Shown here: positions 43,349 through 60,555 of the stretch, piece by piece
Layout of the letters: each line of letters opens with the position of its first letter
Position numbering within the stretch: the stretch's first letter is position 1
From: a virus
Strand: one strand, 5' to 3'
Length of the DNA: 64,000 nt
Virus record (IMG/VR): IMGVR_UViG_3300002835_000148
Made by a program: the position numbers and the translations under genes
Notes under the pieces: generated by a model
Seen by the model: only the letters and a program-made list of their open reading frames with translations
What the model was told of the DNA's origin: nothing
The model's database searches: none

Positions 43349-43362
43349 TCACTCCTCCTTTG

Positions 43363-44286: not shown

Positions 44287-44303
44287 TGCCTTCGCTAGTG
44301 AGT

Positions 44304-47223: not shown

Positions 47224-47484
47224 TTACCATACATCCTCCCCCACATCGTCTGTTTTTCGCATCTCTTCGGGGGACATTTGGATGAAGGTAGCAGGCTCGT
47301 TAGGTGGAATGACAACGTACCCATTGCTGGTCTTGTTGATTGTCGTAATGCCCTTACCACTCAGGCTGCTGATAGCATAGCCATAAGAAGTCTCCTGCAC
47401 ATCTGCTGCACCATCCGGCCCCCAGATAAACAATGCCTGTGCAGGTAGGGAAAATACTACGCCTAGTAAAAATAGCTTTTTCAT
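47224..47484 (-). CDS. small secreted protein
   Basis: 86 aa. Signal-peptide-like MKKLFLLGVVFSLPAQA. Confidence 0.55.
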   Translation of the reverse strand: MKKLFLLGVVFSLPAQALFIWGPDGAADVQETSYGYAISSLSGKGITTINKTSNGYVVIPPNEPATFIQMSPEEMRKTDDVGEDVW

Positions 47485-47972
47485 ATCTCAAACCTCTCGT
47501 CGATACCAACCTTCTCATCTAGCAAAATGTCCAAGAGCTTTATGTGAACCATGCGAGACATCTTGTACAGCATCTTCCTCTCACCAATTTTGATGCCCTC
47601 TTTAATCCCAGCGGCTTTAGCACGACCCAGCATGTCATAAGAAGGTGCAATCTCATCAGCTAACTTAGCGGCCTCTTCTACTACCTCCTCGACTTCAGGT
47701 TCTTCTTCCATTACCTCCTCAACAACTTCTTCAACTACCTCTTCAACGGCTTCTTCCACTACCTCCTCAGCTTTATACTCTCTATTGAAACTCAGCCACT
47801 CAATGCCATCATCACTCACAACCCGCAGCACTTGGCCGCTATCAATAAGCAGCTTCAAAGGTTTTCTGATTCTGTCTTTGCTCATTCCCAATGCGTTTAC
47901 AATCTGACCGCGTGTCATTTCACAGCGAGTGCTTAACAAATCAAGTAGGCAGATGCGTGTACTCATGCTCAT
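47481..47972 (-). CDS. winged-helix-like protein with acidic EEVV repeat
   Basis: 163 aa. N-terminal MTRGQIVNALGMSKDRIRKPLKLLIDSGQVLRV, then EEVVEEAVEEVVEEVVEEVMEEEPEVEEVVEE. Confidence 0.55.
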   Translation of the reverse strand: MSMSTRICLLDLLSTRCEMTRGQIVNALGMSKDRIRKPLKLLIDSGQVLRVVSDDGIEWLSFNREYKAEEVVEEAVEEVVEEVVEEVMEEEPEVEEVVEEAAKLADEIAPSYDMLGRAKAAGIKEGIKIGERKMLYKMSRMVHIKLLDILLDEKVGIDERFEI

Positions 47973-49734: not shown

Positions 49735-50867
49735 GTGTTTATATGAATTGTGCTGCCAGCGGGGGCTAGGATATGCTCTGAAGTTATGGCCCACAGCGTC
49801 GGATACTTGATGATGTTTGGGAAGGGTGTGTATCCGTCGGTCAGCACGATTATAGCCTCTGGCTCTAGCTTGTTCTCTTCGACGTACTCGAAGATTCGAC
49901 ACATATCTGTACCACCACCGCCCTTGAATGACTTCTTCTGCTCTAGCGAATCGAATGTCTCTCGGTCATACACGGTGTGGGCCTGCACTTTAGCATCGAC
50001 TTCCAGCAAGTGCAATGTAGTGGGTGACACTGTGTTACATATAGCGACGATCTCAGAGAGGAAGCAAGCTAGTTCCTTATCTCCCAGACTGCCAGACGTA
50101 TCAACACCTACCACCACAGCCCCCATAGTTTCAGAGAACGACTGCGGCATATACAAATCGTGCTGCAACCACCGACGGCTGGGTCTAGCCCATGTGCTGT
50201 CATCCTTACCTGCTGATACTGAAGACACGAACTCTCTCAACTGCTCACGCCAGTCAACCTGCGGTCGCATCAACTCGCCAAACAATCTATTGGCATCACC
50301 TGACATTTTACTCGCAAGCATCGCCCCCTGTCGTACAGCCTGCTCAATCTCTTTGGATAACTCGTGACACTCTGCCTCGCTTATCTCATCGAAGCGATGC
50401 TCGTCCATACCACCCTGCCCACCATTACCACCTTTTTCTTTCAGCTTGCTAAAGACCTCTTGGGTGTTCATCCCTCTAAAGCCCTCATCAAGCAAAGCAC
50501 AGTCAGGTAGCTTGACGAACCCCTTATGCTTCTTCTCCATGTCAGCAATCTCTAAGTTGATAACATAGTCTGCCGCTTGGTTAGCGAGCTGAGCATTTTC
50601 TTTCCACAGGTGCTTCCATAGCCAGTGATGCTGATAGACTTTATGCAGGTTCTCATGAAGCACCAGACCTACGATCTCCGAATCCTCTAGGCTGCGAATG
50701 AAATCCGCACCGTATAAAACATCACGCCCATTAGTACACGCGGTGGGTATGTCATCTCTAACCTCAGTGTCACCCACCATCAGTATCGCACTGTAAGATA
50801 GCGTAGCTGGGTGGCCCATCATACGCACATGGATTTTCTGTAGTCTCTGTTCTGGTGTAAGTTTCAT
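49731..50867 (-). CDS. VWA-domain protein with N-terminal HExxH metallopeptidase-like domain
   Basis: 378 aa. LHENLH motif. MIDAS-like VVGVDTSGSL. A typical partner of MoxR-type ATPases. Confidence 0.7.
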   Translation of the reverse strand: MKLTPEQRLQKIHVRMMGHPATLSYSAILMVGDTEVRDDIPTACTNGRDVLYGADFIRSLEDSEIVGLVLHENLHKVYQHHWLWKHLWKENAQLANQAADYVINLEIADMEKKHKGFVKLPDCALLDEGFRGMNTQEVFSKLKEKGGNGGQGGMDEHRFDEISEAECHELSKEIEQAVRQGAMLASKMSGDANRLFGELMRPQVDWREQLREFVSSVSAGKDDSTWARPSRRWLQHDLYMPQSFSETMGAVVVGVDTSGSLGDKELACFLSEIVAICNTVSPTTLHLLEVDAKVQAHTVYDRETFDSLEQKKSFKGGGGTDMCRIFEYVEENKLEPEAIIVLTDGYTPFPNIIKYPTLWAITSEHILAPAGSTIHINT

Positions 50868-50885
50868 CTCTGTTCCTCTCTATTG

Positions 50886-51239
50886 TTATGCTGTTAAAGC
50901 TGCAAAGTCTGCGGGTTCCATGATCGTGCCATCCTCATCGCACTCGCGCACTGCACTTCCCCACGCTTGTAGTTGTTTATAGTTCAGCATGGTTGCGTCG
51001 TATATCTTGTGCTTCTTGATTACCTCTACATTGGGTACGCTGTAGGTAATCATGTAGTCCACATTGTCTTTGCCTGAGCGATACGTGTAGTCAAGCCCTA
51101 CAGCGTTCTCAGCTATCAGAGCCTGTATCTGATGCGCTACATGAAGTGGCACCATGATCGTCCCGTTGAGGTGCATCTTAGCCATGATCTGATTTTGCGC
51201 GGGCAGGGTAATAGTAGGGGTTTGTTTTGTTTTGCTCAT
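50886..51239 (-). CDS. hypothetical protein
   Basis: 117 aa. Confidence 0.55.
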   Translation of the reverse strand: MSKTKQTPTITLPAQNQIMAKMHLNGTIMVPLHVAHQIQALIAENAVGLDYTYRSGKDNVDYMITYSVPNVEVIKKHKIYDATMLNYKQLQAWGSAVRECDEDGTIMEPADFAALTA

Positions 51240-51280
51240 TGTTACTCTCCTGTTGTGGGGGCTACCTAAGTAGCCCCATG

Positions 51281-51303
51281 AAAACTTATACCGTATAAGT
51301 TTT
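51281..51303. repeat. early-arm palindrome copy 1
   Basis: AAAACTTATAC-C-GTATAAGTTTT. Followed on the minus strand by the GC hairpin GGGGCTAC-TTAG-GTAGCCCC (51277-51258), then the SD and ATG 51239. Confidence 0.9.
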
Positions 51304-51307
51304 TACC

Positions 51308-52384
51308 TTATGAAAATAAGAAGCTGTTTTGTGCAGCCCATGTTATGAACGTCTTGTGTGTAGATGCCATGCCCTGCTTCTCACTACGCATGATGGTCTT
51401 GGCAAACAGCGCGGCTACCTCTTTGGGCATACGCTCTACATACTCCATCCACGCCGAGAATGTCTCGCGCTCTAGTCTCATGCAAGCCTTGGCTACCAAC
51501 ATACAGCACGCTGCGCCAGACTTAGGGATCGCTGTACCAGTAGGGTCTTTGAGTATCTGCTCCCATCTTGGCAGGTCATTGTTTAGCTTACGCATGGTCA
51601 ACAAGTCCATAGCAGCGGCCTCACCTACTGTACCCATGAGAGCGTGGATAATTACGCTATCGGGCAGATGCTCAGTAGCCTTGAGAATATCGCTGGCCTT
51701 CTCCATTGCCCTGTGAGTTACGAACGCAGCACGCTGTGCCTTAGGGTGGTTGATATAGTGATTATTGCTAGGGTGTTCCACATGAATGTCATCCTCGAAC
51801 ATAGAAGGAAACTCCAGCACCGTGCCGATAACTATGGGGTGGATGTTATTCTTGAGCGCCCAATTCTCTACCCACTCCATAGCCGAAGACTTAGTGATTG
51901 CTGCTTGACACATCCTGTTGCGCTCATGGGGTAGGAACACATCGCCCAGCCCCTCACTAGACCTGTTAGTGGTAGCAAACACTATGCTCCCTTCTGGCAA
52001 AGCATAAGTGCCTATCATTCTATCCAGCATGACCCTCAACAGGCCGTTCTTCACCGCTTTGCTAGTCTTGCCTATCTCGTCAAGCATTATGATGACAGGC
52101 TTTTTCAGGTGACAACCAAACGCTTCGTTAGGTACGAACGACACAACATCAGTGCCGTCGATGGTCTTGAACTTCGGCATCTGCAAGTCACCCAAGTCCA
52201 TTAGCTGCGCTTCTACATACACAGGGTGGTGGTCAGGGAACCTAGCTGCCAGCTCCTTGAGAATAGACGACTTGCCGCATCCCATCGGGCCAGTGACTAG
52301 CACTGTAACTTTGTCGCCAATAGCTGCGATCAGATCAGTCGCGCCAGCCAAAGATATGTAGTTGTATTCTTTCTGTATTTTCAT
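51308..52384 (-). CDS. AAA+ ATPase (MoxR/CbbQ-like)
   Basis: Walker A VTGPMGCGKSS and Walker B VIIMLDEIGK. ATG 52384 is preferred over the TTG 52429 of the ORF track. Confidence 0.7.
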   Translation of the reverse strand: MKIQKEYNYISLAGATDLIAAIGDKVTVLVTGPMGCGKSSILKELAARFPDHHPVYVEAQLMDLGDLQMPKFKTIDGTDVVSFVPNEAFGCHLKKPVIIMLDEIGKTSKAVKNGLLRVMLDRMIGTYALPEGSIVFATTNRSSEGLGDVFLPHERNRMCQAAITKSSAMEWVENWALKNNIHPIVIGTVLEFPSMFEDDIHVEHPSNNHYINHPKAQRAAFVTHRAMEKASDILKATEHLPDSVIIHALMGTVGEAAAMDLLTMRKLNNDLPRWEQILKDPTGTAIPKSGAACCMLVAKACMRLERETFSAWMEYVERMPKEVAALFAKTIMRSEKQGMASTHKTFITWAAQNSFLFS

Positions 52385-52422
52385 TGCTGTTTCTCTCGTT
52401 GTGTTGTGTTTATTTCTGCTTA

Positions 52423-53304
52423 CTACCAAGCGAACTTATCTAACAGTGCGTCCACCTCCTCCTTCATATACTTCCTCACCACTTCATCCTTGCGTAACTC
52501 TGCTGGTTCATACCCAGTCAACACCATCCGTATGTTGCTCTTTAACTCCTCTATCTCTACGTCCCTTGTCAGGTTGAACCCATCCAGTGCATCGCATAAC
52601 TCAAGCGCGCTCTCAATAGTCACATCATGGATGCGCCCCTTCTTACCATTCTCATCTACCCTGAGTTGCTTGGATATTTTCTCAAGCGAACTCTTGACTC
52701 TGCTACGCACCTCAGTCATAGCCCCATTCAACCTAGCATCCTGCTGTCTGGCAAACTGCTCACGCAATTCACTCAATCCTTGATTGCCTATATCTACACG
52801 GAAGTCCCCTGTCTCCGGCAGTGGGTACACCGCGCTACGCATCTCGAACTTAGCAGGTATCTCTGACGGGTCAGGGTAGTCGTCAGCCTTGAACATAGCA
52901 CCAAGGGAGAACTGCGCTGCTTGTACTAACAAGGTGTACTCATTCACGAACGCTTGCACCCTGCGATTGTATTCCGCTTCGTGCGCCCCGTACTGCGCCA
53001 TGTATTCTTGTAAGCGTGCGGCTGGTAATAGCCGCGTCCCTGAGTCCGACCAAGGCAGAGTGTTCCAGTTGTGCCATTGCCTGATGATGGCAGCGTACTT
53101 TGTTATGTCATCCAGTTGCCCTGACCCTGCAAGCAGGTTCTTCTGATACACACCTGCTCTGTTAGTCGCGCCCTTGTTCTGCCCTACCTCATCGGACACT
53201 TCCTTGTCCTGCTTTTTAGCAGTCCATCCTCTGATGGTCAGGTCTACCAGCACTGCGCTAGATGCAATCGTTACGTCGTTGTTGTTTACGTTGTTCATGC
53301 TCAT
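52423..53304 (-). CDS. hypothetical protein upstream of AAA+/VWA pair
   Basis: 293 aa. Possibly the DUF3150-type partner seen with such pairs (from memory, unverified). Confidence 0.55.
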   Translation of the reverse strand: MSMNNVNNNDVTIASSAVLVDLTIRGWTAKKQDKEVSDEVGQNKGATNRAGVYQKNLLAGSGQLDDITKYAAIIRQWHNWNTLPWSDSGTRLLPAARLQEYMAQYGAHEAEYNRRVQAFVNEYTLLVQAAQFSLGAMFKADDYPDPSEIPAKFEMRSAVYPLPETGDFRVDIGNQGLSELREQFARQQDARLNGAMTEVRSRVKSSLEKISKQLRVDENGKKGRIHDVTIESALELCDALDGFNLTRDVEIEELKSNIRMVLTGYEPAELRKDEVVRKYMKEEVDALLDKFAW

Positions 53305-53323
53305 CGTTATATCCTCATTGTTG

Positions 53324-53346
53324 AAAACTTATACCGTATAAGTTTT
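53324..53346. repeat. early-arm palindrome copy 2
   Basis: Identical 23-mer, 19 nt upstream of ATG 53304. Confidence 0.9.
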
Positions 53347-53408
53347 TGCTGCTTTACATCAGCGGGTAAGGCCCGCCACCTCTTTCTACGTTTCTTCAAC
53401 GTAGATAT

Positions 53409-53438
53409 ATTATAGCACAACTATAATACAAAAGTCAA
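53409..53438 (-). promoter_or_regulatory. sigma70-type early promoter
   Basis: Minus strand TTGACT (53438-53433), 18 nt spacer, TATAAT (53414-53409). Followed by hairpin CTACGTT-GAAGA-AACGTAG (53404-53386). Confidence 0.6.
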
Positions 53439-53581
53439 ATTTAGACCGCGTTAACCATCAGCGGCGTAGGACTACATCCTAGTGGGAGAGAGGTGCAGAA
53501 TTACGATAACTGCAATTCGACACTATATGTAGCAGCCACGGTTATTACGCAAGTGAGGCACTCATGGCTTACCCTCTTTTG

Positions 53582-53845
53582 TTAACTAAAAATTATTGCG
53601 ATGACCGGCGCTTGCTGGTCTATAAAATCTCTTACGTGCCGTGGCAGTTGTGCGTAGTACACACACTGCGTCTCTCTCAGGTTGTTTGGCCCACCATAGG
53701 CTACGCTCTGTGGTGGCTCTCCCGCATTGTAGGTATAGTACCAGTATTTAGTACCCTTGATTTTGAACCTTGTCAACACTCGGGTAAACCGCTCGTCCTC
53801 AATTAAGTCATGTGTCAGATTAGTCACTTCGTATTTCATACTCAC
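53582..53845 (-). CDS. hypothetical protein
   Basis: 87 aa. C-terminus QQAPVIAIIFS is similar to its neighbour. Confidence 0.55.
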   Translation of the reverse strand: MSMKYEVTNLTHDLIEDERFTRVLTRFKIKGTKYWYYTYNAGEPPQSVAYGGPNNLRETQCVYYAQLPRHVRDFIDQQAPVIAIIFS

Positions 53846-53846
53846 C

Positions 53847-54107
53847 TCACGAAAGCATGATCGCTATTATTGGTAGCTGCTCAGTGATTGTTCTCTGCAC
53901 CCACTTGGGTGCGCTGCATGTCCTAATGGACACTCCGGTTGCTGCGTTCGTCACACGGCCTGGGCCTAGTAGACGGCACTTGGACTCCTTAAATACATGT
54001 GTTTGGTACGTCGTCCCCCTGTCATTGGTCATGGTGATCGTCACAAAATGTGACCACGCATGCCCTACATCCCACAGCTCATGCTTAACCTCAATCTTAC
54101 CGGCCAT
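53847..54107 (-). CDS. hypothetical protein
   Basis: 86 aa. C-terminus EQLPIIAIMLS. Confidence 0.55.
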   Translation of the reverse strand: MAGKIEVKHELWDVGHAWSHFVTITMTNDRGTTYQTHVFKESKCRLLGPGRVTNAATGVSIRTCSAPKWVQRTITEQLPIIAIMLS

Positions 54108-54309
54108 CGGCGTAGTCCTCGCAGTGCATGTTCAGTACCCACAGGGATACCAAGTCGTCTAGCTGTTCTTGAGTGAGGCACCCTCTTATATCCACGAACT
54201 TATAAACAACTCGATGCACGTACCACTCACCCTCATCCTTACAGTAGGCGCACTCCAACTCTACCTGCTGTTCGTTTATTCCTATTTGTGCTTTCATACT
54301 AATTTTCAT
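54097..54309 (-). CDS. hypothetical protein
   Basis: 70 aa. Confidence 0.5.
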   Translation of the reverse strand: MKISMKAQIGINEQQVELECAYCKDEGEWYVHRVVYKFVDIRGCLTQEQLDDLVSLWVLNMHCEDYADGR

Positions 54310-54875
54310 AACAGCTCACCCTCCTCGTCGAACTCGCACTCGTTTGCGAGTATGGATTCTTCAATAGCCTCATCGCTCGTCAGCCAGTCGTATTCCTTTT
54401 GCAGTGTGTCCTGTATCCAATCGGCAAAGCCATTGAATGCTTGCTCGATTACCTCACCATTTAGCAAGTCCTCTATTTCTTCATCGTCGTCTGCGTCACA
54501 CACTTCCCAATCTACGTTCAATGAAGTGCGGTGTGATGGTGTAATCGACGCCCATAGGTAGCTACCCTGCGTATGGATAGCGCATAGTGCAGATTGCTCA
54601 ACCAGAGGGTCGATGATATGTTTTAAGTCCTCTCTCTGCACATCGGTGAAGTCATCGAGCCTCATATTTTTAGAATTAAACCGCGCCTCATACTGGACAT
54701 ACGCTCCATAAACTAGGCCGAATCCCTTGATCTCGAAGCCATATATCCCCAATCCAAACGCCACGTCTGCAACGTATTTGTATACGTGCTCCCACCAATC
54801 GTGATCGACGTTGATGTCAGCGAAGCGGTCGCGGGCTTTCTCTTTTGCTTCGTTGCTCAGTTGTTCGTACTTCAT
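54306..54875 (-). CDS. acidic hypothetical protein
   Basis: 189 aa. D/E-rich C-terminal third (CDADDDEEIEDLL, ECEFDEEGELL). Confidence 0.6.
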   Translation of the reverse strand: MKYEQLSNEAKEKARDRFADINVDHDWWEHVYKYVADVAFGLGIYGFEIKGFGLVYGAYVQYEARFNSKNMRLDDFTDVQREDLKHIIDPLVEQSALCAIHTQGSYLWASITPSHRTSLNVDWEVCDADDDEEIEDLLNGEVIEQAFNGFADWIQDTLQKEYDWLTSDEAIEESILANECEFDEEGELL

Positions 54876-54891
54876 GCTGCTCTCTCCTGCG

Positions 54892-54914
54892 AAAACTTAT
54901 ACCGTATAAGTTTT
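54892..54914. repeat. early-arm palindrome copy 3
   Basis: Identical 23-mer (25 nt with G/C flanks), 16 nt upstream of ATG 54875. Confidence 0.9.
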
Positions 54915-54935
54915 CGCCTTGTTATTTTGTTACTC

Positions 54936-55385
54936 TTACCACCAAGCGGGTGCTGTGGCGCGATCCCAAGAGGCGAAGCTCTTGGTTCTGTAGTATGTGC
55001 GGTATGATTCTACCGCATCATCCGTCTTACACGCATCTGGCATAGCCAGAGCGAATGGCGTTAGCCCTGCATTGGGCAGGGTTGAGATAAAGCCAGTCCT
55101 TCCTAAATGTACGCACTTGGCAAGGGCTAAGTGATTGTCGTGCTTACCCCACCTCTTCTTGTACTCCTCATTTAGCCACACCATTAACTCCCATAGCCAC
55201 GTAGCATTATCTTGTGACTGTGCCACCCACCTAGTGCATGGGTGGTTTTTATGGGTGGGCTTGTATGGGCCGTTAAGGGCTGTGGATAACATCTGCGCGC
55301 TCTCTAATATCATCTTCGGCACATGCTTATCGCAATGTGCCTGAGCCGCAAGGCGCGGCTCCTCGTCTAATACAAATATATTCAT
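54936..55385 (-). CDS. conserved phage protein (possibly DNA glycosylase-like, unverified)
   Basis: 149 aa from MNIFVLDEEPRLAAQAHCDKHVPKMILESAQML. ATGA overlap with the upstream gene. Confidence 0.5.
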   Translation of the reverse strand: MNIFVLDEEPRLAAQAHCDKHVPKMILESAQMLSTALNGPYKPTHKNHPCTRWVAQSQDNATWLWELMVWLNEEYKKRWGKHDNHLALAKCVHLGRTGFISTLPNAGLTPFALAMPDACKTDDAVESYRTYYRTKSFASWDRATAPAWW

Positions 55386-55618
55386 TGCTTTCTCTCCTCG
55401 TCCTCGTAGAATTTTGCCTCGACGCAATTCCCCCACAAACCCGTGACTTCACACAATGCGAAGCCCACTTCATCGCCACAGTCCCATGTGCCTGTACCTG
55501 CCGTAGCTAAGAAGGCATTGAGCATACCTTCTTCCTCATCCTCCAGCCCTGAGTAGTCGCCATTGATAATGGCGGGCAGGAAGTGTTCGCCTATTGTGTA
55601 TTCGATTGGCTCTCTCAT
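55382..55618 (-). CDS. hypothetical protein
   Basis: 78 aa, acidic. Confidence 0.5.
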   Translation of the reverse strand: MREPIEYTIGEHFLPAIINGDYSGLEDEEEGMLNAFLATAGTGTWDCGDEVGFALCEVTGLWGNCVEAKFYEDEERKQ

Positions 55619-55980
55619 CTCAATTCCTCCGGTACATCTACCTCATCGCCTAATTTACTAGCCACATAGCAGCGCATAGCTGCGATAAGGGGGGTCGTGC
55701 CGTGAAAGTGGTCAGACCGTTTTTGTTTACGGCAGGCAAACCAGTCAGGGTTTGCTTCCTTGAATGCTTTTGCTTGTGCAAGGGTCAGGTTACACAGCAC
55801 CTCTATGCCCTCCCGCTCAATGATCGGCCCACCTTGCTCCCATTTGGTCGAGGGGCTAAAAAACCCTTGTTTTACGCCATCTATGGCGATCTTACCAAGC
55901 ATCAAGCCTTCACACTTTGCCACTGCCCAGTCAAGGGCAGCGCCACTCAGTCGATATGTTTTCATACTCTCGTATCTCAT
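55615..55980 (-). CDS. hypothetical protein (DUF2591-like pattern)
   Basis: 121 aa. Sequence LSGAALDWAVAKCEG. Confidence 0.55.
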   Translation of the reverse strand: MRYESMKTYRLSGAALDWAVAKCEGLMLGKIAIDGVKQGFFSPSTKWEQGGPIIEREGIEVLCNLTLAQAKAFKEANPDWFACRKQKRSDHFHGTTPLIAAMRCYVASKLGDEVDVPEELR

Positions 55981-55995
55981 CGTTGTTCCTCCTGT

Positions 55996-56018
55996 AAAAC
56001 TTATACCGTATAAGTTTT
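55996..56018. repeat. early-arm palindrome copy 4
   Basis: Identical 23-mer, 15 nt upstream of ATG 55980. Confidence 0.9.
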
Positions 56019-56025
56019 CGTGTTG

Positions 56026-56295
56026 TTACTCGCCATATGCGCTTTCGATGCGCTCCCCGCTGTGGGCGCAGTACCAGTCGTACTCGCCCCAATTCACGTC
56101 CATATAAATGACGCGCCATCCGTAATCGCTCTGTTCCCTGACAGCTCGCAATACTTCCTTGTAATTCTCCTTGACTGCCTTAAATGATAAGGCTTCGCCA
56201 TCGCTGGCGATGAAATACACTGGATACCCGCCCGGCCACGCATAGGGGCCAGAGCGGAGGGCGTTCTTCAAATCTTTGCTGTTTTTTATTTCCAT
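56026..56295 (-). CDS. hypothetical protein
   Basis: 89 aa. Confidence 0.55.
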   Translation of the reverse strand: MEIKNSKDLKNALRSGPYAWPGGYPVYFIASDGEALSFKAVKENYKEVLRAVREQSDYGWRVIYMDVNWGEYDWYCAHSGERIESAYGE

Positions 56296-56297
56296 TG

Positions 56298-56528
56298 CTA
56301 CTCCTCCTCTATGAACATCACTACGCAGTCGCCGTTTTTGGGGTGCAGCACTATGGTGTCATGCCCATACTGCACATCACAGGGTATACCTGCCCACCCC
56401 GCCACTGCCTTGGCAGCGCGGATTTTTGCCAGTCGGGTGTTTGTCTTGGTCTCGGCCTCGTACCGACGCACCCACGCATAGTTTGCGTCTCCTCCGAATG
56501 TATCAGTCACTTCTACTTTTATTTTCAT
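56298..56528 (-). CDS. hypothetical protein
   Basis: 76 aa. Confidence 0.55.
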   Translation of the reverse strand: MKIKVEVTDTFGGDANYAWVRRYEAETKTNTRLAKIRAAKAVAGWAGIPCDVQYGHDTIVLHPKNGDCVVMFIEEE

Positions 56529-56546
56529 TGCGCTCTCCTATGTTTG

Positions 56547-56569
56547 AAAACTTATACCGTATAAGTTTT
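56547..56569. repeat. early-arm palindrome copy 5
   Basis: Identical 23-mer, 18 nt upstream of ATG 56528. Confidence 0.9.
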
Positions 56570-56703
56570 CGTTGGGTTTGTTGTGATGATGTGTTGTGTC
56601 TAGCTGGTAAGGCCAGCCGTCCTATATGTGAATGAAATGCGCAACGTGTAAACCTATACAAGCACCGCTCATTCATCGCACCGTTTTCTCAAACAGTGGG
56701 GAT

Positions 56704-56732
56704 ATTATACTCTAATATCTGGTTGCTGTCAA
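56704..56732 (-). promoter_or_regulatory. consensus sigma70 early promoter
   Basis: Minus strand TTGACA (56732-56727), 17 nt spacer, TATAAT (56709-56704). Hairpin CACTGTTT-GAGA-AAACGGTG follows directly. Confidence 0.7.
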
Positions 56733-56825
56733 GCATTTAATTTTAGGTCATTCATCATCATCCAGCAGCACCTAAAACTCTCTGCCCTCAGCCTCCGTCC
56801 CACTGTTTTCTCAAACAGTGGGGAT

Positions 56826-56854
56826 ATTGTACGCCTATTCTACTTCTTTGTCAA
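56826..56854 (-). promoter_or_regulatory. near-consensus sigma70 early promoter
   Basis: Minus strand TTGACA (56854-56849), 17 nt spacer, TACAAT (56831-56826). Hairpin CCCACTGTTT-GAGA-AAACAGTGGG (56822-56799) follows directly. Confidence 0.7.
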
Positions 56855-56885
56855 GTCTTTGTTTTTGTTGGCTTTTTCTGCGTTT

Positions 56886-58013
56886 TTACCATAGGGGTCT
56901 TACCTTTAGTGGGCTGAGTGGGATGAAGTTGGTTTTCTCCCAGTAGTTTACTGGGTCTGCATCGGGTAGCACGTGGCTTCCGTCTGCTTTTAACTCGTCC
57001 ACCTTGTTTCCAGCACTGTCTATCACTACCTGCCATCCTGTCGGCTGGCCTATGGGTTTTGTGTTGCTACTGGGTTTTGTGTTGCTACTGGGTTTTGCGT
57101 TGCTACTGGGTTTTGCGTTGCTACTGGGTTTTGCGTTTTCCTGCCCCCACTCATTTTCCTCGCCTCTGCCCCATGCTTCCAGTGCATCGAGCAGGGTCAT
57201 CATGTCGGCTTCGTCTATTATCCGCAGGCTCTTAGCGTATGGGGTCTGGTACTTGAGCCAATGCTCGCGTGTGTTGTTTATAACCTGTAAGAATGAAGCC
57301 GTACTCACACCACCTAACAAGCCCGCATCTATGCTACCGCCACCTAATAGGCCAGCGCCTCCCAAGCCAGTCCCTCCGCCTACCAGCCAATTAAATGTGT
57401 AGGCACTTTTAGCAGCCTTTTCAGCGCGTTCTGTCGCGCTGTTGCCCTTGTTCCTATTCATTATAGAAGGTAGATACATGGTAGAAGCACCCTCTGCCCT
57501 GAAATCCTGCTTGTGGTCGATGCAGTATTTGTTCTTAACATCCTCAATCAAGGCAGCACTAGGGATAATAATGGAGTGGCGCACCGTTTCGACGTAATTC
57601 ACAGCACCCCCATGCGCTTCTACTCCATAGTACGACACTATGCCTTTCCTAGCTGCTATGCCTGCATTACGCATGTTCAACGTGTTTTCTGATGCGTACC
57701 TTGTGCTTAGAAATTCTCCACGCTGGCGCGTGATGTATACAAGGTAGTCTAGTTCGGGTAGGTAGAGTCCTTCTGGCATGAACTCCCGTGTCTTAGCACG
57801 AGGGCTTTTCCTTGGGCTTCTTTGGTTGTTTGTGTCGGTGGCGGTGGTGATTTTTATGGGCTGGTGGTTGGTGCTTTGTTGGGCGTTTTGCTGTAGGTTT
57901 TCTATCTGGTGCGTCAGTTTTTTTATCTCATCCATCATCATTGCCACCGTCTTTTCCAGCATTTTTTCACGGTCTTGGGCACTTTCGGGGGAGGGGGAGA
58001 ATTGTGATGTCAT
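56886..58013 (-). CDS. early protein with Gly-rich core and AKPSSN repeats
   Basis: 375 aa from ATG 58013 (ORF-track TTG 58070 is not accepted). Contains GGGTGLGGAGLLGGGSIDAGLLGG and 4-5x (A/T)KPSSN. Confidence 0.6.
   Translation of the reverse strand: MTSQFSPSPESAQDREKMLEKTVAMMMDEIKKLTHQIENLQQNAQQSTNHQPIKITTATDTNNQRSPRKSPRAKTREFMPEGLYLPELDYLVYITRQRGEFLSTRYASENTLNMRNAGIAARKGIVSYYGVEAHGGAVNYVETVRHSIIIPSAALIEDVKNKYCIDHKQDFRAEGASTMYLPSIMNRNKGNSATERAEKAAKSAYTFNWLVGGGTGLGGAGLLGGGSIDAGLLGGVSTASFLQVINNTREHWLKYQTPYAKSLRIIDEADMMTLLDALEAWGRGEENEWGQENAKPSSNAKPSSNAKPSSNTKPSSNTKPIGQPTGWQVVIDSAGNKVDELKADGSHVLPDADPVNYWEKTNFIPLSPLKVRPLW
57053..57137. repeat. 18-nt tandem repeat x4.7
   Basis: TGGGTTTTG(T/C)GTTGCTAC units, encoding the AKPSSN repeats on the minus strand. 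Confidence 0.85.
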
Positions 58014-58305
58014 GGTGAATCCTATAATTAGATGTAACGAATCGTTCTTGTATTTGAAATAACTTGTCAAATTTAGGGGGGTTGAAAGTTACCGCTCTTA
58101 CTCGGATATGATGGGGGCGTAAGCGGATTAAGTCAATAGGCTTTTTGTATTTATATTGGATTGGGGGATTGATTGGATTAGGGAAAAAATAGTGATGTTT
58201 ATGGCTCTTAATTTTGGTTGTTTTTCAGTGTGAAAGTTTAACCTGTGGATAAAATTAAGGCGTTGATTTGGAAGGAGTTTTTCGACGGCGATTAAGGAAA
58301 TGCGC

Positions 58306-58434
58306 GATATAATAACCTATTCTATTAAAGAGAAAAGAGAGAGACCCTATAAGAGGGGTCGTAGGAAAACGGGCGGCTGGGAAAATCTCTACGACGCCCT
58401 CTCTTTCTTCTTTAATAGAATACATTATTATATC
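58306..58434. repeat. long imperfect inverted repeat (about 36-38 nt arms)
   Basis: The left arm GATATAATAACCTATTCTATTAAAGAGAAAAGAGAGAG pairs with CTCTCTTTCTTCTTTAATAGAATACATTATTATATC. The inner GGGGTCGTAG pairs with CTACGACGCCC. Confidence 0.75.
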
Positions 58435-58498
58435 TTCTACTTTTTTCTTTTTTCGCGGGGTTCGCGCCCACCTCACCCCTGCCTCAAACGCACCCCCA

Positions 58499-58521
58499 AA
58501 AACTTATACCGTATAAGTTTT
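58499..58521. repeat. early-arm palindrome copy 6
   Basis: Identical 23-mer inside the non-coding island. Confidence 0.9.
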
Positions 58522-58600
58522 GCATCCCTGCCACGCAACACGAAAACGCCCAAAGGCCTCAGTCCTAGTAATAAGGAACTGGCTTGGTGGAACTGGCTTG

Positions 58601-58623
58601 AAAACTTATACCGTATAAGTTTT
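58601..58623. repeat. early-arm palindrome copy 7
   Basis: Identical 23-mer inside the non-coding island. Confidence 0.9.
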
Positions 58624-58692
58624 CAGCCTCGCGCATGCGCGAACGCTAATCGAAGTGAGAATGAGAATCATTCTCAACAAAAAGTTGAGGCC

Positions 58693-58716
58693 AAAAAAGC
58701 CGCGCATACGCGCGGC
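58693..58716 (-). terminator. rho-independent terminator after first early gene
   Basis: Minus strand GCCGCGC-GTAT-GCGCGGC followed by TTTTTT, 19 nt after the stop of 58735..59577. Confidence 0.8.
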
Positions 58717-58734
58717 TATGTTGGTGAGTGCGTG

Positions 58735-59577
58735 CTACTTGCTAGACTTAGCCTTGAGCGCGTCGCCCGCTTTGCGGGTTTCCTGTTCGCTTTGTATCAA
58801 AGCATTTTTTAAGTCCACGTACTTTATGCCTAGGATTCCCGCAGTGTTTTTAATGTACTCGACTGTCAAGGGGTGCCGTTGAAATTGCAATAGTATCGTG
58901 TACCAATGCTCCAGCTCTGATAGCGCGTCCGTGTCGTCTGTTTTGCTTACTATTTTGGATAGTGTTGCGTCCGCATCTTGCACTTGTTTTGGTGGGACTT
59001 TACCCGCTGGAGCTGGAGCTGGAGCTGGAGCTGGAGCTGGAGCTGGAGCTGGAGCTGGAGCTGGAGCTGGAGCTGGAGCTGGAGCTGGAGCTGGAGCTGG
59101 AGCTGGAGCTTTATCCGCTGATGCCGGAGCTTTATCCGCTGATGCCGGAGCTTTATCCGCTGATGCCGGAGCTGATGCCTTGCTAACAGCCCTATTGATC
59201 GTTTTGCCGTCCCAGCCTATCCACGCTTTTGCCGTTTTTAGCCTATGCGGGTTTAAGTCCGTTGGGATTATTCGCTCTTGAAAGGCAAATTTAAGAGTAG
59301 TCATGAGCGCGTCGGGGTTGCTGTAGTTACTCGCAACCACGGCAACCCGTAGTTGCTTCTTGATGCTGTCCCATGGCTTAGCGCCATACTTCTCTAGCAG
59401 GGAAACAAGAGCGGCTCTTGTTTCCTTTTGCAATTTAGCAGTTGTCTGAAGTTCGTCATTAAGTTCGCCTATCCTTTTGGCGTAATGCACATAGCCTAAT
59501 GTGTGCTTGACTAGGTTTATCGAATCAACGGCAAAAGTATCCACATTGTCATTTGCTTTGTTTGCTTGCTTGCTCAT
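58735..59577 (-). CDS. first early protein with (Pro-Ala)n linker
   Basis: 280 aa. Contains 3x ADKAPAS then about 17x PA. Helical-looking N- and C-terminal domains. Confidence 0.65.
   Translation of the reverse strand: MSKQANKANDNVDTFAVDSINLVKHTLGYVHYAKRIGELNDELQTTAKLQKETRAALVSLLEKYGAKPWDSIKKQLRVAVVASNYSNPDALMTTLKFAFQERIIPTDLNPHRLKTAKAWIGWDGKTINRAVSKASAPASADKAPASADKAPASADKAPAPAPAPAPAPAPAPAPAPAPAPAPAPAPAPAPAGKVPPKQVQDADATLSKIVSKTDDTDALSELEHWYTILLQFQRHPLTVEYIKNTAGILGIKYVDLKNALIQSEQETRKAGDALKAKSSK
59006..59170. repeat. tandem repeats: (GCTGGA)x17 then a 21-nt unit x3
   Basis: Perfect hexamer tract at 59006..59107. GCTTTATCCGCTGATGCCGGA x3 at 59108..59170. Confidence 0.9.
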
Positions 59578-59631
59578 GTCATTCTCTCATAAGTGATTGA
59601 TTTACCACGGCAGGGCTGCCGCTTGCCGTCT

Positions 59632-59659
59632 ATTATACAGAGTCTGTCAATCTGTACAA
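59632..59659 (-). promoter_or_regulatory. candidate sigma70 promoter (proximal)
   Basis: Minus strand TTGTAC, 16 nt spacer, TATAAT, preceded by a T-rich stretch. Lies about 55 nt upstream of ATG 59577. Confidence 0.4.
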
Positions 59660-59685
59660 CAAAAATTAAACACGAAAAAACAAGG

Positions 59686-59709
59686 GAAACTTATACGCGT
59701 ATAAGTTTC
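59686..59709. repeat. early-arm palindrome copy 8 (variant)
   Basis: Perfect 24-nt palindrome GAAACTTATACGCGTATAAGTTTC between the two candidate promoters. The minus strand continues CCTTGTTTTTT. Confidence 0.9.
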
Positions 59710-59741
59710 GGCCCTGTAATGGCACGGTATATATAAGGTAT

Positions 59742-59770
59742 ATTATAACACAAAACGCTAACAAAATCAA
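59742..59770 (-). promoter_or_regulatory. sigma70-type early promoter (distal)
   Basis: Minus strand TTGATT (59770-59765), 17 nt spacer, TATAAT (59747-59742). Confidence 0.6.
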
Positions 59771-59793
59771 GGACTTACAGAATATAGGCTATC

Positions 59794-59850
59794 GTTGTCC
59801 GCTTTTTGTCCAGGGTATTCGTTGTTGTTGTCCGTTTTTTGTCCAGGGTA
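59794..59850. repeat. two 24-nt direct repeats, 33-bp period
   Basis: GTTGTCCG(C/T)TTTTTGTCCAGGGTA at 59794-59817 and 59827-59850. Each contains two TTGTCC half-sites. Confidence 0.85.
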
Positions 59851-60018
59851 GGGAACTAGCTTGCTTGATTTTGACCCCACCCCACCCCGCACCCCCCGCG
59901 CAGCGATGGGACTCCGTACGTAAATATAGACTATATTCTTGACAGTTACAGACCAAAATTATTGCATGTTTGGTTAAGATGTGTTTTAATACACCCTCTC
60001 ATCTACGGAGGTAGCACC

Positions 60019-60555
60019 ATGCGAGCCAGCAAATACAAAAAAATTTCCCAGCAACAGTTACATGACATGTTTGATTACGACACAGAGACCGGATATTTAA
60101 CCAGAAAAGTAAAAGGAAACACCCAGCGTGTAGGGAGCCGAGCAGGAACACTGTACTATGCGAAAGGGAATCTTACGGGGCGGGTGATAGGCATAGACAA
60201 AGAGCGCTACGCCGCGCATGTACTAATATGGTTGTATGTGTACGGAATAGTGCCTGAGTGTCAAATAGACCATATAGACCAAAATCCAGACAACAACTCC
60301 TTAAGAAACTTACGCCTAGCGCCAAACAACCAAATGGATCAATGCCAAAACAAAAGGCCCAGCAGGAAAAACAAGCTAGGTGTCATTGGGGTCAGGTACG
60401 ATGCAGAACGGCGGCGCTACTACGCTACTATCACTGCATACAAAAAACATTATTTTTTAGGAGGGTATGCAACGCTAGAAGAAGCTGCCGCTGCGCGTAA
60501 AAAAGCGGAAGTAGTGCTACACCCTTTTTCTACAAAAACACCCCCCACTGCTTAA
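60019..60555 (+). CDS. HNH endonuclease with AP2-like DNA-binding domain
   Basis: 178 aa from an ATG with GGAGG 7 nt upstream (ORF-track TTG 59962). Contains CQIDHIDQNPDNNSLRNLR and GVRYDAERRRYYATI..GGYATLEEAAAARKKAE. Confidence 0.75.
   Translation: MRASKYKKISQQQLHDMFDYDTETGYLTRKVKGNTQRVGSRAGTLYYAKGNLTGRVIGIDKERYAAHVLIWLYVYGIVPECQIDHIDQNPDNNSLRNLRLAPNNQMDQCQNKRPSRKNKLGVIGVRYDAERRRYYATITAYKKHYFLGGYATLEEAAAARKKAEVVLHPFSTKTPPTA

Follow-up and report, generated by a model that had tools for sequence, protein, structure and literature searches.

A short palindrome recurs almost unchanged along the early arm of this uncultured phage, which raises the question of what recognizes it and whether recognition would take place on DNA or on the transcript. 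The DNA analysed, hereafter the window, is a single stretch of 64 kb; genomes designated by L numbers are its relatives.

Palindrome copies and their surroundings

The palindrome comprises 23 nt, AAAACTTATAC-C-GTATAAGTTTT, present in seven exact copies and accompanied by an even-centred eighth copy, GAAACTTATACGCGTATAAGTTTC (Table 1). A search of both strands of the 64 kb, tolerating up to 3 mismatches, discloses no further match to the 23-mer; this is the exhaustive search called for in an earlier note on this DNA, and it bears out the seven identical copies and one variant counted there. The chance expectation is 0, with 0 matches in 100 shuffles. All 8 copies lie in non-coding DNA of the minus-strand early arm, as the earlier note had stated (chance 2.7e-6, given 20% non-coding DNA in 50886-59800), and all fall inside one 8.9 kb stretch of the window (chance 1.4e-7). 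The central base is C on the + strand, that is, G on the transcribed sense strand, in 7/7 exact copies, and perfect complementarity reaches 25-29 nt in three copies (54889-54917, 56546-56570, and 58599-58625). Two independent metagenome contigs, L032 and L070, carry the same copies at 98-99.8% identity, and the palindromes are therefore not an assembly artefact.

Table 1. Palindrome copies, promoters and neighbouring features of the early arm, and candidate binding proteins (+ strand coordinates)
Feature	Coordinates	Strand	Context
Even-centred variant GAAACTTATAC-GC-GTATAAGTTTC	59686..59709	-	between candidate promoters P1 and P2
Exact copy	58601..58623	-	non-coding island behind first early gene
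Exact copy, second of island	58499..58521	-	present in L032 and L070 too
Exact copy	56547..56569	-	18 nt upstream of ATG 56528 (76-aa gene)
Exact copy	55996..56018	-	15 nt upstream of ATG 55980 (NinX-like 121-aa gene)
Exact copy	54892..54914	-	16 nt upstream of ATG 54875 (189-aa gene)
Exact copy	53324..53346	-	19 nt upstream of ATG 53304 (293-aa DUF3150-like gene)
Exact copy	51281..51303	-	between MoxR-type ATPase gene and 117-aa gene; mosaic junction
G+C-rich hairpin GGGGCTAC-TTAG-GTAGCCCC	51258..51277	-	between 51281 copy and SD of gene 51239
Candidate early promoter P1	59742..59770	-	TTGATT-17-TATAAT, with TG; promoter scan
Candidate early promoter P2	59632..59659	-	TTGTAC-16-TATAAT; read from sequence
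Non-coding island	58014..58734	-	terminator, two palindromes, inverted repeat, DnaA-box-like element, in that order
Two near-consensus sigma-70-type promoters	56704..56854	-	56854..56826, 11/12; 56732..56704, 12/12
Sigma-70-type promoter	53409..53438	-	TTGACT-18-TATAAT, with TG; then 5' hairpin
First early gene, 280 aa	58735..59577	-	candidate for binding protein
163-aa protein	47481..47972	-	weak winged-helix N-terminus, acidic EEVVEE repeats, helical C-terminus

Four copies end 15-19 nt before an ATG with the SD in between, exactly as first described. At 51281 the distance is 41 nt, the extra hairpin reported there, GGGGCTACTTAGGTAGCCCC, being confirmed; L126 and L140 show covariation of its stem at the orthologous position (GGGGCGG/CCGCCCC and GGGGTGG/CCACCCC, respectively), and L121 and L127 display comparable G+C hairpins downstream of their palindromes. 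The gaps are thus real, but the emphasis originally placed on start codons is weaker evidence than it appears, because intergenic sites in tightly packed operons must adjoin starts and because copies in the clade also occur at promoters, in the island and inside genes. The 56547 copy is placed at the 3' end of a 357-nt intergenic region holding two strong sigma-70-type promoters, each directly followed by a hairpin that would sit at the transcript 5' end, and the 53324 copy lies ~63 nt downstream of the -10 of the promoter at 53438..53409. Predicted RNA hairpins reach -9.6 kcal/mol (z -3.0) at 56547 and -15.3 kcal/mol (z -5.0) at 54892, where the perfect palindrome extends over 29 nt.

The claim that the variant at 59686 lies between tandem promoters stands for P1, which is kept in L001, L121 and L124, and is qualified for P2, which is absent from the promoter scan list and has a weak -35, being read from sequence and conserved in L001. 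The L121 equivalent of P2, at the same place, is TTGACA-17-TATAAT; downstream of P2 come a leader hairpin and then the first early gene. The site of the variant is also palindromic in L001, L058 and L091 (odd centre, C on the sense strand) and in L121 and L124 (one mismatch), and the corresponding L127 copy overlaps a -35. On the sense strand the variant, which the earlier note suggested could attenuate, is followed by CCTTGTTTTTT; the T-run begins after 'CC', the stem is poor in G-C pairs, and the T-run is absent at the L121 and L124 copies. A terminator reading of the palindromes was tried and is not supported.

The island comprises the terminator (58698-58717), the two palindromes, a 36-nt inverted repeat (58306-58341 / 58399-58434) and the DnaA-box-like TTATCCACA (58244-58252). 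A direct repeat of AAGCCAGTTCC comes after the 58601 copy, GAAGCCAGTTC comes after the corresponding island palindrome in L124 and L129, and a palindrome-bearing island is present behind the first early gene in all relatives.

Two proteins encoded in the window are candidates for a binding protein. The 280-aa product of the first early gene comprises a helical N-terminal domain, a Pro-Ala linker and a C-terminal domain with a helix-turn-helix-like pattern; family and PDB searches return low-complexity matches only, and the C-terminal domain of its L121 homologue matches HTH_68 at a sub-threshold E of 0.083. Its AlphaFold model is unusable (pLDDT 38.7), as is that of the 163-aa protein. The latter, proposed earlier as the binder, is retained as a possible lineage-specific candidate, its matches to ArsR, MarR, ParB-HTH and Lrs14 models being sub-threshold (E 1e-3 to 0.1; HTH_ParB, E 0.022), with no PDB relative and no homologue found in relatives by tblastn. 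No integrase or immunity-type repressor was found among the ORFs scanned.

Lineage-specific palindromes in related phages

Every relative sharing the early-arm layout and the DUF3150-MoxR-VWA module carries its own palindrome, of one uniform type per genome and in the same kinds of place, with 4-17 or more copies. The types include (i) GTCATAC-N-GTATGAC, (ii) TTTTAGAC-(0-2)-GTCTAAAA, (iii) GTTAGTC-NN-GACTAAC, (iv) TCGAAAC-N-GTTTCGA, and (v) GGTTCAG-N-CTGAACC, with 17 perfect copies in the isolate Planktothrix phage Pag-Yong1. Even close relatives differ, the window displaying CTTATAC and L141/L142 GTCATAC despite an 89% identical 117-aa protein, and an orthologous site with the same flanks reads TATAC in L140 vs TAGAC in L126. 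No such repeat is present in HTVC027P or 023Pt_psg01, two TerL relatives that do not have the early-arm module. The motif is not a host repeat, 6 single matches being obtained when one genome from each of 185,579 species was scanned, and the reading as host REP elements was tested and is not supported.

Conservation is confined to the arms, whereas the centre varies freely: L127 displays eight different centre dinucleotides among 11 copies, all four centre bases are used in Pag-Yong1, and L128 has G, G, A and T. Centre length also varies within genomes (0/1 nt in L124; 1/2 nt in the window and L129). The sense-strand centre of start-proximal copies is biased, G 22 : C 2, compared with G 5 : C 8 in other copies (Fisher p = 0.001, the copies not being independent). 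The arms of L124, L127 and L128 span 5-9 bp, and minimum-free-energy folds of their mRNA context show either no hairpin or a weak one (z near 0).

The search of relatives for a positional bias, suggested by the earlier note, discloses conserved positions, so that the copies are neither randomly placed nor devoid of positional conservation, the outcomes that would have counted against its proposal. In 8/8 genomes examined (window, L069, L121, L124, L127, L128, L129 and Pag-Yong1) the DUF3150 homologue is immediately preceded by a palindrome; others lie between P1 and P2 in the window, L001, L121 and L124, just upstream of a -35 in L121, L128 and L142, and before the NinX homologue in L124 as well (6118). 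Pag-Yong1 maintains 21-22 nt from palindrome to ATG in nine or more early cassettes and also carries perfect or one-mismatch copies within long ORFs and on both arms; among its degenerate copies, G.U pairs are not in excess of A.C pairs on the sense strand (9 vs 10).

Alignment and identities show that the relatedness of the window to L140/L126 and to L141 switches exactly at the 51281 palindrome. On the ATPase side the window resembles L140 and L126 (83-86%), whereas on the side of the 117-aa gene it is 89% identical to L141, whose flanking ATPase and VWA genes are at 57-58%.

Recognition on DNA or on RNA

We favour, with a probability of about 0.45, the reading of the palindromes as operator or roadblock sites for a phage-encoded dimeric DNA-binding protein, resembling mycobacteriophage stoperators. 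A putative sequence-specific protein of two-fold symmetry, encoded by the phage, would read the palindromes on duplex DNA and control the early arm, presumably by repression: the copy between P1 and P2 would serve as an ordinary operator, the island and intercistronic copies as extra operators or as roadblocks to elongating host RNA polymerase, and binding would modulate or silence the entire early arm no matter which internal promoter serves, as Cluster A stoperators do. Protein and sites would diversify together, giving each lineage its own uniform palindrome.

The earlier deduction of a sequence-specific trans-acting factor from within-genome identity is strengthened, because the palindrome changes from one related phage to the next but stays uniform inside each genome; this same pattern argues for sites on DNA, and lineage-specific site motifs tracking the cognate repressor are documented for stoperators (PMC6550527). 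Constant arms with a free centre are the pattern expected of a dimer reading half-sites on duplex DNA, whereas a protein that binds hairpins should read the loop. Also in favour of DNA sites are (i) the short-armed palindromes of L124, L127 and L128, without a strong predicted hairpin, (ii) the operator-positioned copies between P1 and P2 and overlapping or just upstream of a -35, (iii) the Pag-Yong1 copies in ORFs and on both arms, without G.U excess, and (iv) the absence of such a repeat from the two TerL relatives without the early-arm module and the finding that the motif is not a host repeat. On the other hand, the candidate binders offer sub-threshold HTH hints only, half-site spacing varies within genomes, which rigid dimers tolerate poorly, the centre base of start-proximal copies is strand-biased, two long intergenic regions of the window have the site beside the SD and clear of the promoter, and the setting differs from the temperate phages where such systems are known, as neither integrase nor immunity-type repressor was found among the scanned ORFs. 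The comparative data lean towards DNA over RNA, without settling the matter.

A serious rival, though on balance an unlikely one, is action in cis at the RNA level, serving translation or processing. Once transcribed, the palindrome would become double-stranded immediately 5' of the ribosome-binding site, either by folding on itself or by pairing with a second copy, and a trans-acting factor would use this duplex to repress translation, to set its timing, or to cleave the polycistronic early mRNA. Cleavage would leave an upstream message that ends in the palindrome hairpin and a downstream one that starts with a G+C-rich hairpin. The distances of the five start-proximal window copies fit this, the proximity being kept even in the 357-nt and 277-nt intergenic regions, as do the constant spacing in Pag-Yong1, the strand bias of the centre, and centres of 0, 1 or 2 nt, which would change loop size alone. 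The window hairpins are reasonably stable (-7.7 to -15.3 kcal/mol; z -3 to -5 in 3/5), and several palindromes are followed at 2-11 nt by covarying G+C hairpins resembling those right after the sigma-70-type promoters, in keeping with a new 5' end arising there. The anatomy of Cluster K ESAS/SAS, with inverted repeats just upstream of a start-associated motif, is similar (PMC3203893). It would however be unusual for a fully paired RNA stem to be read by its sequence when the loop is unconstrained, and most relatives have stems that are too short to fold. Some copies are located within promoters or upstream of them, Pag-Yong1 has others deep inside ORFs, the degenerate copies display no G.U excess, and sites in packed operons adjoin start codons anyway. 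A 5' end could instead be made by transcription, the element being a phage-specific promoter for an unrecognised polymerase or a modified host polymerase that starts ~10-14 nt downstream of the centre, as at N4 DNA-hairpin promoters. In three L129 genes, which have no SD, the ATG begins 10-11 nt from the centre of a palindrome; in the window, L121, L126 and L127, the G+C hairpins start at a distance of 8-15 nt from it; and the start-proximal copies share one centre-base orientation (22 to 2 by count). This is nonetheless improbable: no RNA polymerase was found, the other large ORFs being replication or structural proteins; the arms are not sigma-70 -10 elements (TCTAAA has no A at position 2, TATAAG no final T, CTGAAC neither); and strong sigma-70-type promoters already serve the early arm. 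The 2631-aa virion protein displays lysozyme, LPD23, LPD38 and HExxH peptidase motifs, with no T7/N4-type polymerase motifs and no PDB relative. The N4-type hairpin promoter was tested and is not supported.

Very unlikely is a role chiefly as recombination joints or self-propagating repeats, without regulatory function, in which short shared sequences would mark the cassette borders at which related phages swap genes and uniformity would arise by gene conversion and palindrome-templated repair. The 51281 copy sits precisely at the switch in relatedness, gene content between palindromes differs greatly among relatives, and a PD-(D/E)XK exonuclease is encoded at 39165-39845. The junction palindrome is nevertheless of the recipient genome's type and not common to both partners, and therefore not simply the homology used in the exchange; neither target-site duplications nor a transposase or RAYT-like gene came to light. 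Selection on a recognised sequence is favoured by the conserved positions (upstream of DUF3150, P1-P2, island), by the strict arms with free centres and by the copies associated with promoters.

Relation to known systems

In the IncP plasmid RK2, the KorB operators (O_B, TTTAGC-S-GCTAAA) are 13-bp odd-centred palindromes, ~12 of which are distributed over a 60-kb replicon; some are placed at promoters and others near or far from them, and one global regulator reads all of them. They resemble TTTTAGAC-G-GTCTAAAA in form; KorB, however, is a plasmid ParB-family CTPase, and here no ParB-like protein was found beyond the sub-threshold HTH_ParB match. The conserved inverted repeats of the Streptomyces phage phiC31 are reportedly highly conserved palindromes of ~17 bp, bound by the c repressor, with many intergenic copies in the early region, one of them tied to autoregulation of the regulator gene. 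The likeness lies in the multi-copy conserved palindrome in early-region gaps; phiC31 is a temperate actinophage with a known binder, whereas the phage described here looks lytic and has candidate binders only, and the motif sequence is unrelated.

Like the palindromes, the RNase III sites of T7 fall between cistrons shortly before gene starts, as hairpins of an early mRNA that the host transcribes, but they are long, irregular and different in sequence, whereas the copies here are short and identical. The analogy drawn in the earlier note fails because most relatives have stems of only 5-9 bp, a length insufficient for RNase III, and no folding of these stems is predicted in the mRNA context. 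SAS/ESAS repeats of Cluster K mycobacteriophages, whose function is unknown, are tightly tied to the translation starts of a gene subset, their positions are conserved by gene family, and their consensus positions differ between subclusters (PMC3203893). SAS is an asymmetric 13-mer including the SD, and the ESAS arms are imperfect 17-mers 4-13 bp apart (PMC3203893), unlike the perfect, contiguous arms with a 0-2 nt centre found here, where some copies lie at promoters or in the island, away from starts.

Stoperators of the Cluster A mycobacteriophages L5 and Bxb1 are bound by the immunity repressor and act as roadblocks to elongation (PMC6550527, PMC9283540). Both systems comprise many copies of one short site dispersed through transcribed regions in short intergenic gaps, most of them away from promoters and some placed as true operators at an early promoter, with an own consensus per lineage that tracks genome relatedness. 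In contrast to the perfect palindromes, stoperators are asymmetric, span 13 bp and are bound by a repressor monomer, their orientation follows transcription, and 20-30 occur across the genome vs 8 copies confined to the early arm of the window; their phages are temperate, whereas neither integrase nor repressor was found here and no stoperator-repressor homologue was identified. Read as binding sites for a phage regulator, the palindromes would be an arrangement of a familiar type, now seen in a clade from which it had not previously been described.

The palindrome family in the window and its genomic setting

The window represents nearly the whole phage genome, with the structural and packaging genes on the plus strand, including TerL and a 2631-aa polyvalent virion protein comprising lysozyme, LPD23, and LPD38 domains. 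The long minus-strand arm begins at ~59.8 kb and comprises small early genes as well as DUF3150-like, MoxR-type ATPase, VWA, MazG, ThyX, DNA polymerase A, SNF2 helicase, PD-(D/E)XK nuclease, and DUF927 primase-helicase genes; scanning of the ORFs in the window turned up neither an integrase nor a repressor nor an RNA polymerase.

An exhaustive search of both strands, allowing up to three mismatches, recovered the exact 23-mer at the seven positions reported in the earlier note and no further match in the window, with shuffled sequence yielding none. The 25-nt form reads GAAAACTTATACGGTATAAGTTTTC, and the even-centred variant lies where it had been placed. The palindrome is the sole dispersed repeat family in the window other than coding tandem repeats. 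As had been stated, all eight copies are non-coding and fall within 8.9 kb of the minus-strand early arm, with chance probabilities of 2.7e-6 for all eight being non-coding and 1.4e-7 for the clustering; five of the eight are intercistronic. The palindrome-to-ATG gaps of four copies, each enclosing an SD, were also correctly measured, and the 51281 copy is indeed parted from its own gene by a G+C hairpin. Proximity to start codons holds even in intergenic regions of 357 and 277 nt. Identical copies are carried by contigs from other metagenomes that are 98-99.8% identical to the window.

Coordinates of features in the window
Feature	Coordinates	Strand	Remark
Exact palindrome copies	51281, 53324, 54892, 55996, 56547, 58499, 58601		23-mer AAAACTTATACCGTATAAGTTTT
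Even-centred variant	59686-59709		GAAACTTATACGCGTATAAGTTTC
Gene starts following a palindrome	55980, 54875, 56528, 53304	-	gaps of 15, 16, 18, and 19 nt, respectively
117-aa gene, start	51239	-	gene of the 51281 copy
G+C-rich hairpin	51258-51277		between the 51281 copy and its gene
Entry of terminator scan	54889-54917		antisense strand
Candidate early promoters P1, P2	59742-59770, 59632-59659	-	
Near-consensus sigma-70-type promoters	59770, 56854, 56732, 53438	-	promoter scan
Hairpins past the -10	56826-56790, 56704-56670, 53409-53385	-	
First early gene	58735-59577	-	280 aa
In-frame tandem repeats	58990-59190, 57040-57145	-	first two early genes
Second perfect palindrome	59401-59425		GGAAACAAGAGC-G-GCTCTTGTTTCC
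Non-coding island	58014-58734		
Inverted repeat, 36 nt	58306-58341 / 58399-58434		in island, 89% complementary
DnaA-box-like sequence	58244-58252		in island, TTATCCACA
Conserved non-coding element	~59873-59940		...ATAGTCTATATTTACGTACGGAGTCCC-N10-GGGGGGTGCGGGGTGGGGTGGGGTC
HNH_3 endonuclease gene	59962-60555		free-standing
TerL	61162-62727	+	
163-aa protein	47481-47972	-	
DNA polymerase A	39857-42553	-	
SNF2 helicase	36088-38574	-	
Periodic and ~139-nt repeats	43360-44600	-	

The early arm displays several other elements. The strong sigma-70-type early promoters carry a hairpin 2-4 nt past the -10, such as CCCACTGTTTGAGAAAACAGTGGG, so early transcripts would start with a 5'-terminal stem-loop; the hairpins at 56826 and 56704 are one repeat, 91% identical (D20). 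The in-frame tandem repeats comprise a Pro-Ala run of ~28 dipeptides with three ADKAPAS units in one gene and five 18-nt units encoding N(A/T)KPSS in the other, and homologues contain other low-complexity linkers in the same place. The first early gene contains, within its coding sequence, a second perfect palindrome of 25 nt, with 12-1-12 geometry and another sequence (~0.004 expected by chance in 64 kb, a rough estimate), which is absent there from the related contig L001. The island contains an inverted repeat, a DnaA-box-like 9-mer found three times in the window versus 0.38 expected, and a direct repeat of AAGCCAGTTCC, the core of which is kept after the island palindrome in relatives L124 and L129; the island may function as an origin or encode small RNA. 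A conserved non-coding element in the divergent stretch that separates P1 from the HNH/terminase genes recurs in the same place in L001, L121, L124, L127, and L142; its possible identities include a packaging site, a genome end, and a structured RNA.

Endonuclease-related sequences are also present: (i) an internal segment matching endonuclease family phrog_93 is found both in the DNA polymerase A ORF and in the SNF2 helicase ORF; (ii) a free-standing HNH_3 gene, missing from L001 at this position, separates the early promoters from the terminase genes; and (iii) the TerL ORF of L129, of 836 aa, has an intein-like Hom_end_hint match. Elsewhere, several short ORFs are crossed by degenerate 12-nt periodic repeats (GCCGTTGCCGTC...) and by three ~139-nt copies that have diverged; on the minus strand these would encode Gly-rich repeats.

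Palindrome types and positions among relatives

A nucleotide search of a phage collection with positions 51000-60000 gave no match, and the ATPase as a single query against viral contigs returned no relatives; these were reached via homologues of the ATPase and the 117-aa protein, their contigs, and pattern scans. The nearest isolates by TerL, at ~50% identity, are the pelagiphages HTVC027P and HTVC023P and Planktothrix phage Pag-Yong1, and the gene order from terminase to early arm is common to the relatives retrieved. A de novo count of short inverted repeats revealed one dominant palindrome in each related genome, in 4-17 or more copies, comprising at least seven types, each uniform inside its own genome. 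As a negative control for the method, HTVC027P and 023Pt_psg01, related by TerL and lacking the early-arm module, display no such repeat.

Dominant palindromes of the window and related genomes (L numbers denote contigs)
Genomes	Palindrome	Copies
Window, L001, L058, L091	AAAACTTATAC-N-GTATAAGTTTT	
L141, L142	AAAAGTCATAC-N-GTATGACTTTT	
L140	TTTATAC-G-GTATAAA	
L126	(C/T)TAGAC-G-GTCTA(G/A)	
L121, L124, L129	TTTTAGAC-(0, 1 or 2 nt)-GTCTAAAA	10-11 each
L127	GTTAGTC-NN-GACTAAC	11
L128	TCGAAAC-N-GTTTCGA	4
Pag-Yong1 (cultured)	GGTTCAG-N-CTGAACC, GGTTCAGCCTGAACC	17 perfect, ~33 with at most 1 mismatch

The earlier note had proposed looking in relatives for the element and its positional bias, and the same architecture recurs in each genome: promoter 1, palindrome, promoter 2, first early gene, terminator, island with about two copies, and then copies upstream of a subset of genes. 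The palindrome directly precedes the DUF3150 homologue in all eight genomes examined, and in the distant L069 this copy is the only one in 8.4 kb. In Pag-Yong1, 12 of the 17 perfect copies are intergenic, though the genome is 91% coding. Its early intergenic regions (OL906435.1) are near-copies of one ~45-nt cassette comprising a stop codon, (g)atcc, GGTTCAGNCTGAACC, a C-rich spacer of 21-22 nt with the SD, and the ATG. The Pag-Yong1 genome appears G+C-rich in the stretches read, which is unexpected since Planktothrix is of low G+C; deposited records that share its length of 65,014 bp name three different cyanobacterial hosts.

The window motif gave just six hits, all single, in 185,579 bacterial and archaeal species scanned with one genome apiece, and is thus not a host repeat; an operator for a host regulator was rejected on the same grounds. 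MetJ was considered, with one metbox in TAGACGTCTA, and misfits because the sites are single and odd-centred. Another multi-copy repeat, GTATAACTTATAC-N-GTATAAGTTATAC, shares the core of the window motif and is often tandemly extended. It occurs on many short contigs (L003, L004, L012, L015, L018, L023, L027, L046, L050, L054, L057, L062, L099, L103, L104, and others) from metagenome samples Ga0256838, Ga0208946, Ga0115011, and Ga0209404, often at contig ends; these contigs show no protein similarity to the window.

The junction between the ATPase and 117-aa genes discloses how the palindrome type behaves. A G+C-rich hairpin between palindrome and SD is found in the window, L121, L126, L127, L140, and L141, and at the orthologous junction it covaries (GGGGCGG/CCGCCCC versus GGGGTGG/CCACCCC), its sequence varying with pairing kept, whereas the palindrome is identical within a genome. 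To the left of the junction palindrome the window resembles L140 and L126 (ATPase 83-86% identical), and to the right L141 (117-aa protein 89% identical, the flanking ATPase and VWA proteins only 57-58%); in the alignment, the switch of relatedness falls at the palindrome, where each genome carries its own type. In addition, L140 and L126 share both flanks, yet differ by TATAC versus TAGAC, a symmetric point switch at one orthologous site. Taken together, these comparisons indicate that the palindrome type belongs to the genome and not to the neighbouring gene, and that it changes fast and in concert; that the palindromes are themselves recombination joints or selfish repeats is the least probable of the readings considered. 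L121, L124, and L129 are too diverged from one another for breakpoints to be located, and the stretch between two palindromes where L121 differs from L122 falls on a scaffold gap of Ns.

DNA-level and RNA-level readings

The palindromes were compared with known element classes. T7-type RNase III sites, invoked in the earlier note, have a stem of about two helical turns, usually with an internal loop, and the palindromes do not conform: the window has stems of 11-14 bp, and L124, L127, L128, and Pag-Yong1 have stems of 5-9 bp, with no predicted in-context hairpin in relatives. Intrinsic terminators combine a G+C-rich stem with a U-run; the seven exact copies are A/U-rich without a U-run, and a terminator scan listed just one palindrome, on the antisense strand. 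The 59686 variant may still be an attenuator; CC precedes its T-run, and L121 and L124 have no T-run. As sigma-70 promoters (-35/-10, 16-18 bp spacing), none of the eight was listed by the scan, and the arms do not hold the invariant -10 positions across lineages. For REP elements with RAYT, no TnpA_REP gene was found in the window, and the species scan gave single-copy hits only. Rfam 15 returned no relevant match at E up to 1 for 50500-60500. An ops-like non-template hairpin for a NusG paralogue was also considered, as was sigma-dependent pausing; no TAnnnT is conserved across lineages, and no KOW-domain protein was seen.

We tentatively read the palindromes as operator or roadblock sites for a putative phage-encoded symmetric DNA-binding regulator, at a probability of about 0.45. 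Several observations favour action on DNA: (i) the arms are kept and the centre is free, with eight different centre dinucleotides in L127 and all four bases in Pag-Yong1; (ii) the arms span 5-9 bp in most lineages, and the hairpin is absent from minimum-free-energy folds in mRNA context in L124 and L127 and marginal in L128, although the longer arms of the window do fold (-7.7 to -15.3 kcal/mol); (iii) some copies occupy operator positions at promoters; (iv) near-perfect Pag-Yong1 copies lie deep inside ORFs and on both arms; and (v) the degenerate Pag-Yong1 copies carry, on the sense strand, 9 G.U versus 10 A.C, with no sign of selection on RNA pairing. An RNA-level role is less likely, though a serious alternative, and draws on the start-codon proximity kept in the long intergenic regions, the constant spacing of 21-22 nt to the ATG in Pag-Yong1, the centres of 0, 1, and 2 nt inside one genome, and the covarying downstream hairpins, which suggest that a new 5' end may arise there. 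It is also consistent with a strand bias of the centre base in odd-centred types (sense G 22 : C 2 near starts, G 5 : C 8 elsewhere; Fisher p = 0.001, the copies not being independent). Two of these points carry less weight than might appear: packed operons put any intergenic site beside a start codon, and DNA-acting stoperators are placed likewise.

That the palindrome is a promoter generating a 5' end is improbable. The geometry is compatible with N4-type hairpin promoters for a phage or virion RNA polymerase, which have a 5-7 bp stem and a 3-nt loop centred ~11 nt upstream of the start; an N4-like virion RNA polymerase was rejected, since the scanned ORFs include no polymerase and the giant protein lacks polymerase motifs as well as any family or PDB match to such an enzyme. 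Speculative, and quite improbable too, is a trans-acting RNA-RNA network with C-centred copies antisense to G-centred ones. As the palindrome is perfect, a C-centred sense transcript is the exact antisense of every G-centred copy, and in every lineage the promoter leader or the island retains copies with a C or an even centre. Such copies could be short regulatory transcripts whose CCG loops would kiss target CGG loops and extend to a 17-25 bp duplex beside the SD, which would block translation or serve as a substrate for RNase III; the computed duplex of any two copies has -25 to -30 kcal/mol versus -16 for two separate hairpins. If so, one small RNA would control many early cistrons, encoded opposite none, and a symmetric point change would be enough to give the entire network a new key.

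For the regulator of the DNA-level reading, the first early protein is a candidate: its C-terminal domain is helical and shows an HTH-like pattern, and a homologue gave one sub-threshold HTH match. The homologue search was swamped by the Pro-Ala repeat, and the model of the protein has pLDDT 38.7. The 163-aa protein, put forward in the earlier note, shows sub-threshold winged-helix matches and an acidic linker, but no detectable conservation in relatives. The 117-aa protein, considered as a ribbon-helix-helix binder after a weak ParD2 match (E 0.33), was rejected: the secondary structure of its AlphaFold model (pLDDT 51) is not ribbon-helix-helix, and the protein is 89% identical in L141 despite a different palindrome, so it does not covary with palindrome type.

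Relation to known phage repeats and significance

Dispersed phage-specific regulatory repeats are a known kind of element, and we found no description for this clade, nor anything specific in the literature on Pag-Yong1 or on similar repeats. Conserved inverted repeats of phiC31 and KorB operators of RK2 are also close to these palindromes. The closest analogy by behaviour is the so-called stoperators of Cluster A mycobacteriophages, which are dispersed and mostly off promoters, their consensus being lineage-specific and following the repressor (PMC6550527, PMC9283540), and which act on DNA and share the placement beside start codons (PMC6550527). In both systems one short site recurs many times in transcribed regions, mostly off promoters, and its lineage-specific consensus changes jointly at all sites of a genome. 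In contrast, stoperators are asymmetric 13-bp sites oriented with transcription, in temperate phages with a cognate immunity repressor that blocks elongation, whereas the sites here are perfect palindromes with strand bias in the centre base only, and neither repressor nor integrase was found among the scanned ORFs; the symmetry of the sites and, probably, the lack of a temperate setting thus speak against membership of the stoperator family. By anatomy, the SAS/ESAS elements of Cluster K mycobacteriophages are closest, and their function is still unknown (PMC3203893). The perfect symmetry, the fast concerted switching between close relatives, and the placement at a mosaic junction are worth following up.

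The palindromes represent a regulatory signature of an entire clade of podovirus-like phages from freshwater, most of them uncultured, with Pag-Yong1 as the one cultured member. Hallmarks of the clade are a DUF3150-MoxR-VWA module, a giant polyvalent virion protein, and an early arm that diverges from the terminase gene. In practice, the motif flags cassette borders, aids the placement of gene starts, and sorts metagenomic contigs by regulatory type. Uniform, lineage-specific palindromes are the footprint left when a trans-factor and its sites evolve quickly as a pair, and in temperate phages such pairs define immunity groups. The same footprint without sign of lysogeny would suggest that early-gene shut-off or co-infection exclusion diversifies in a similar way.
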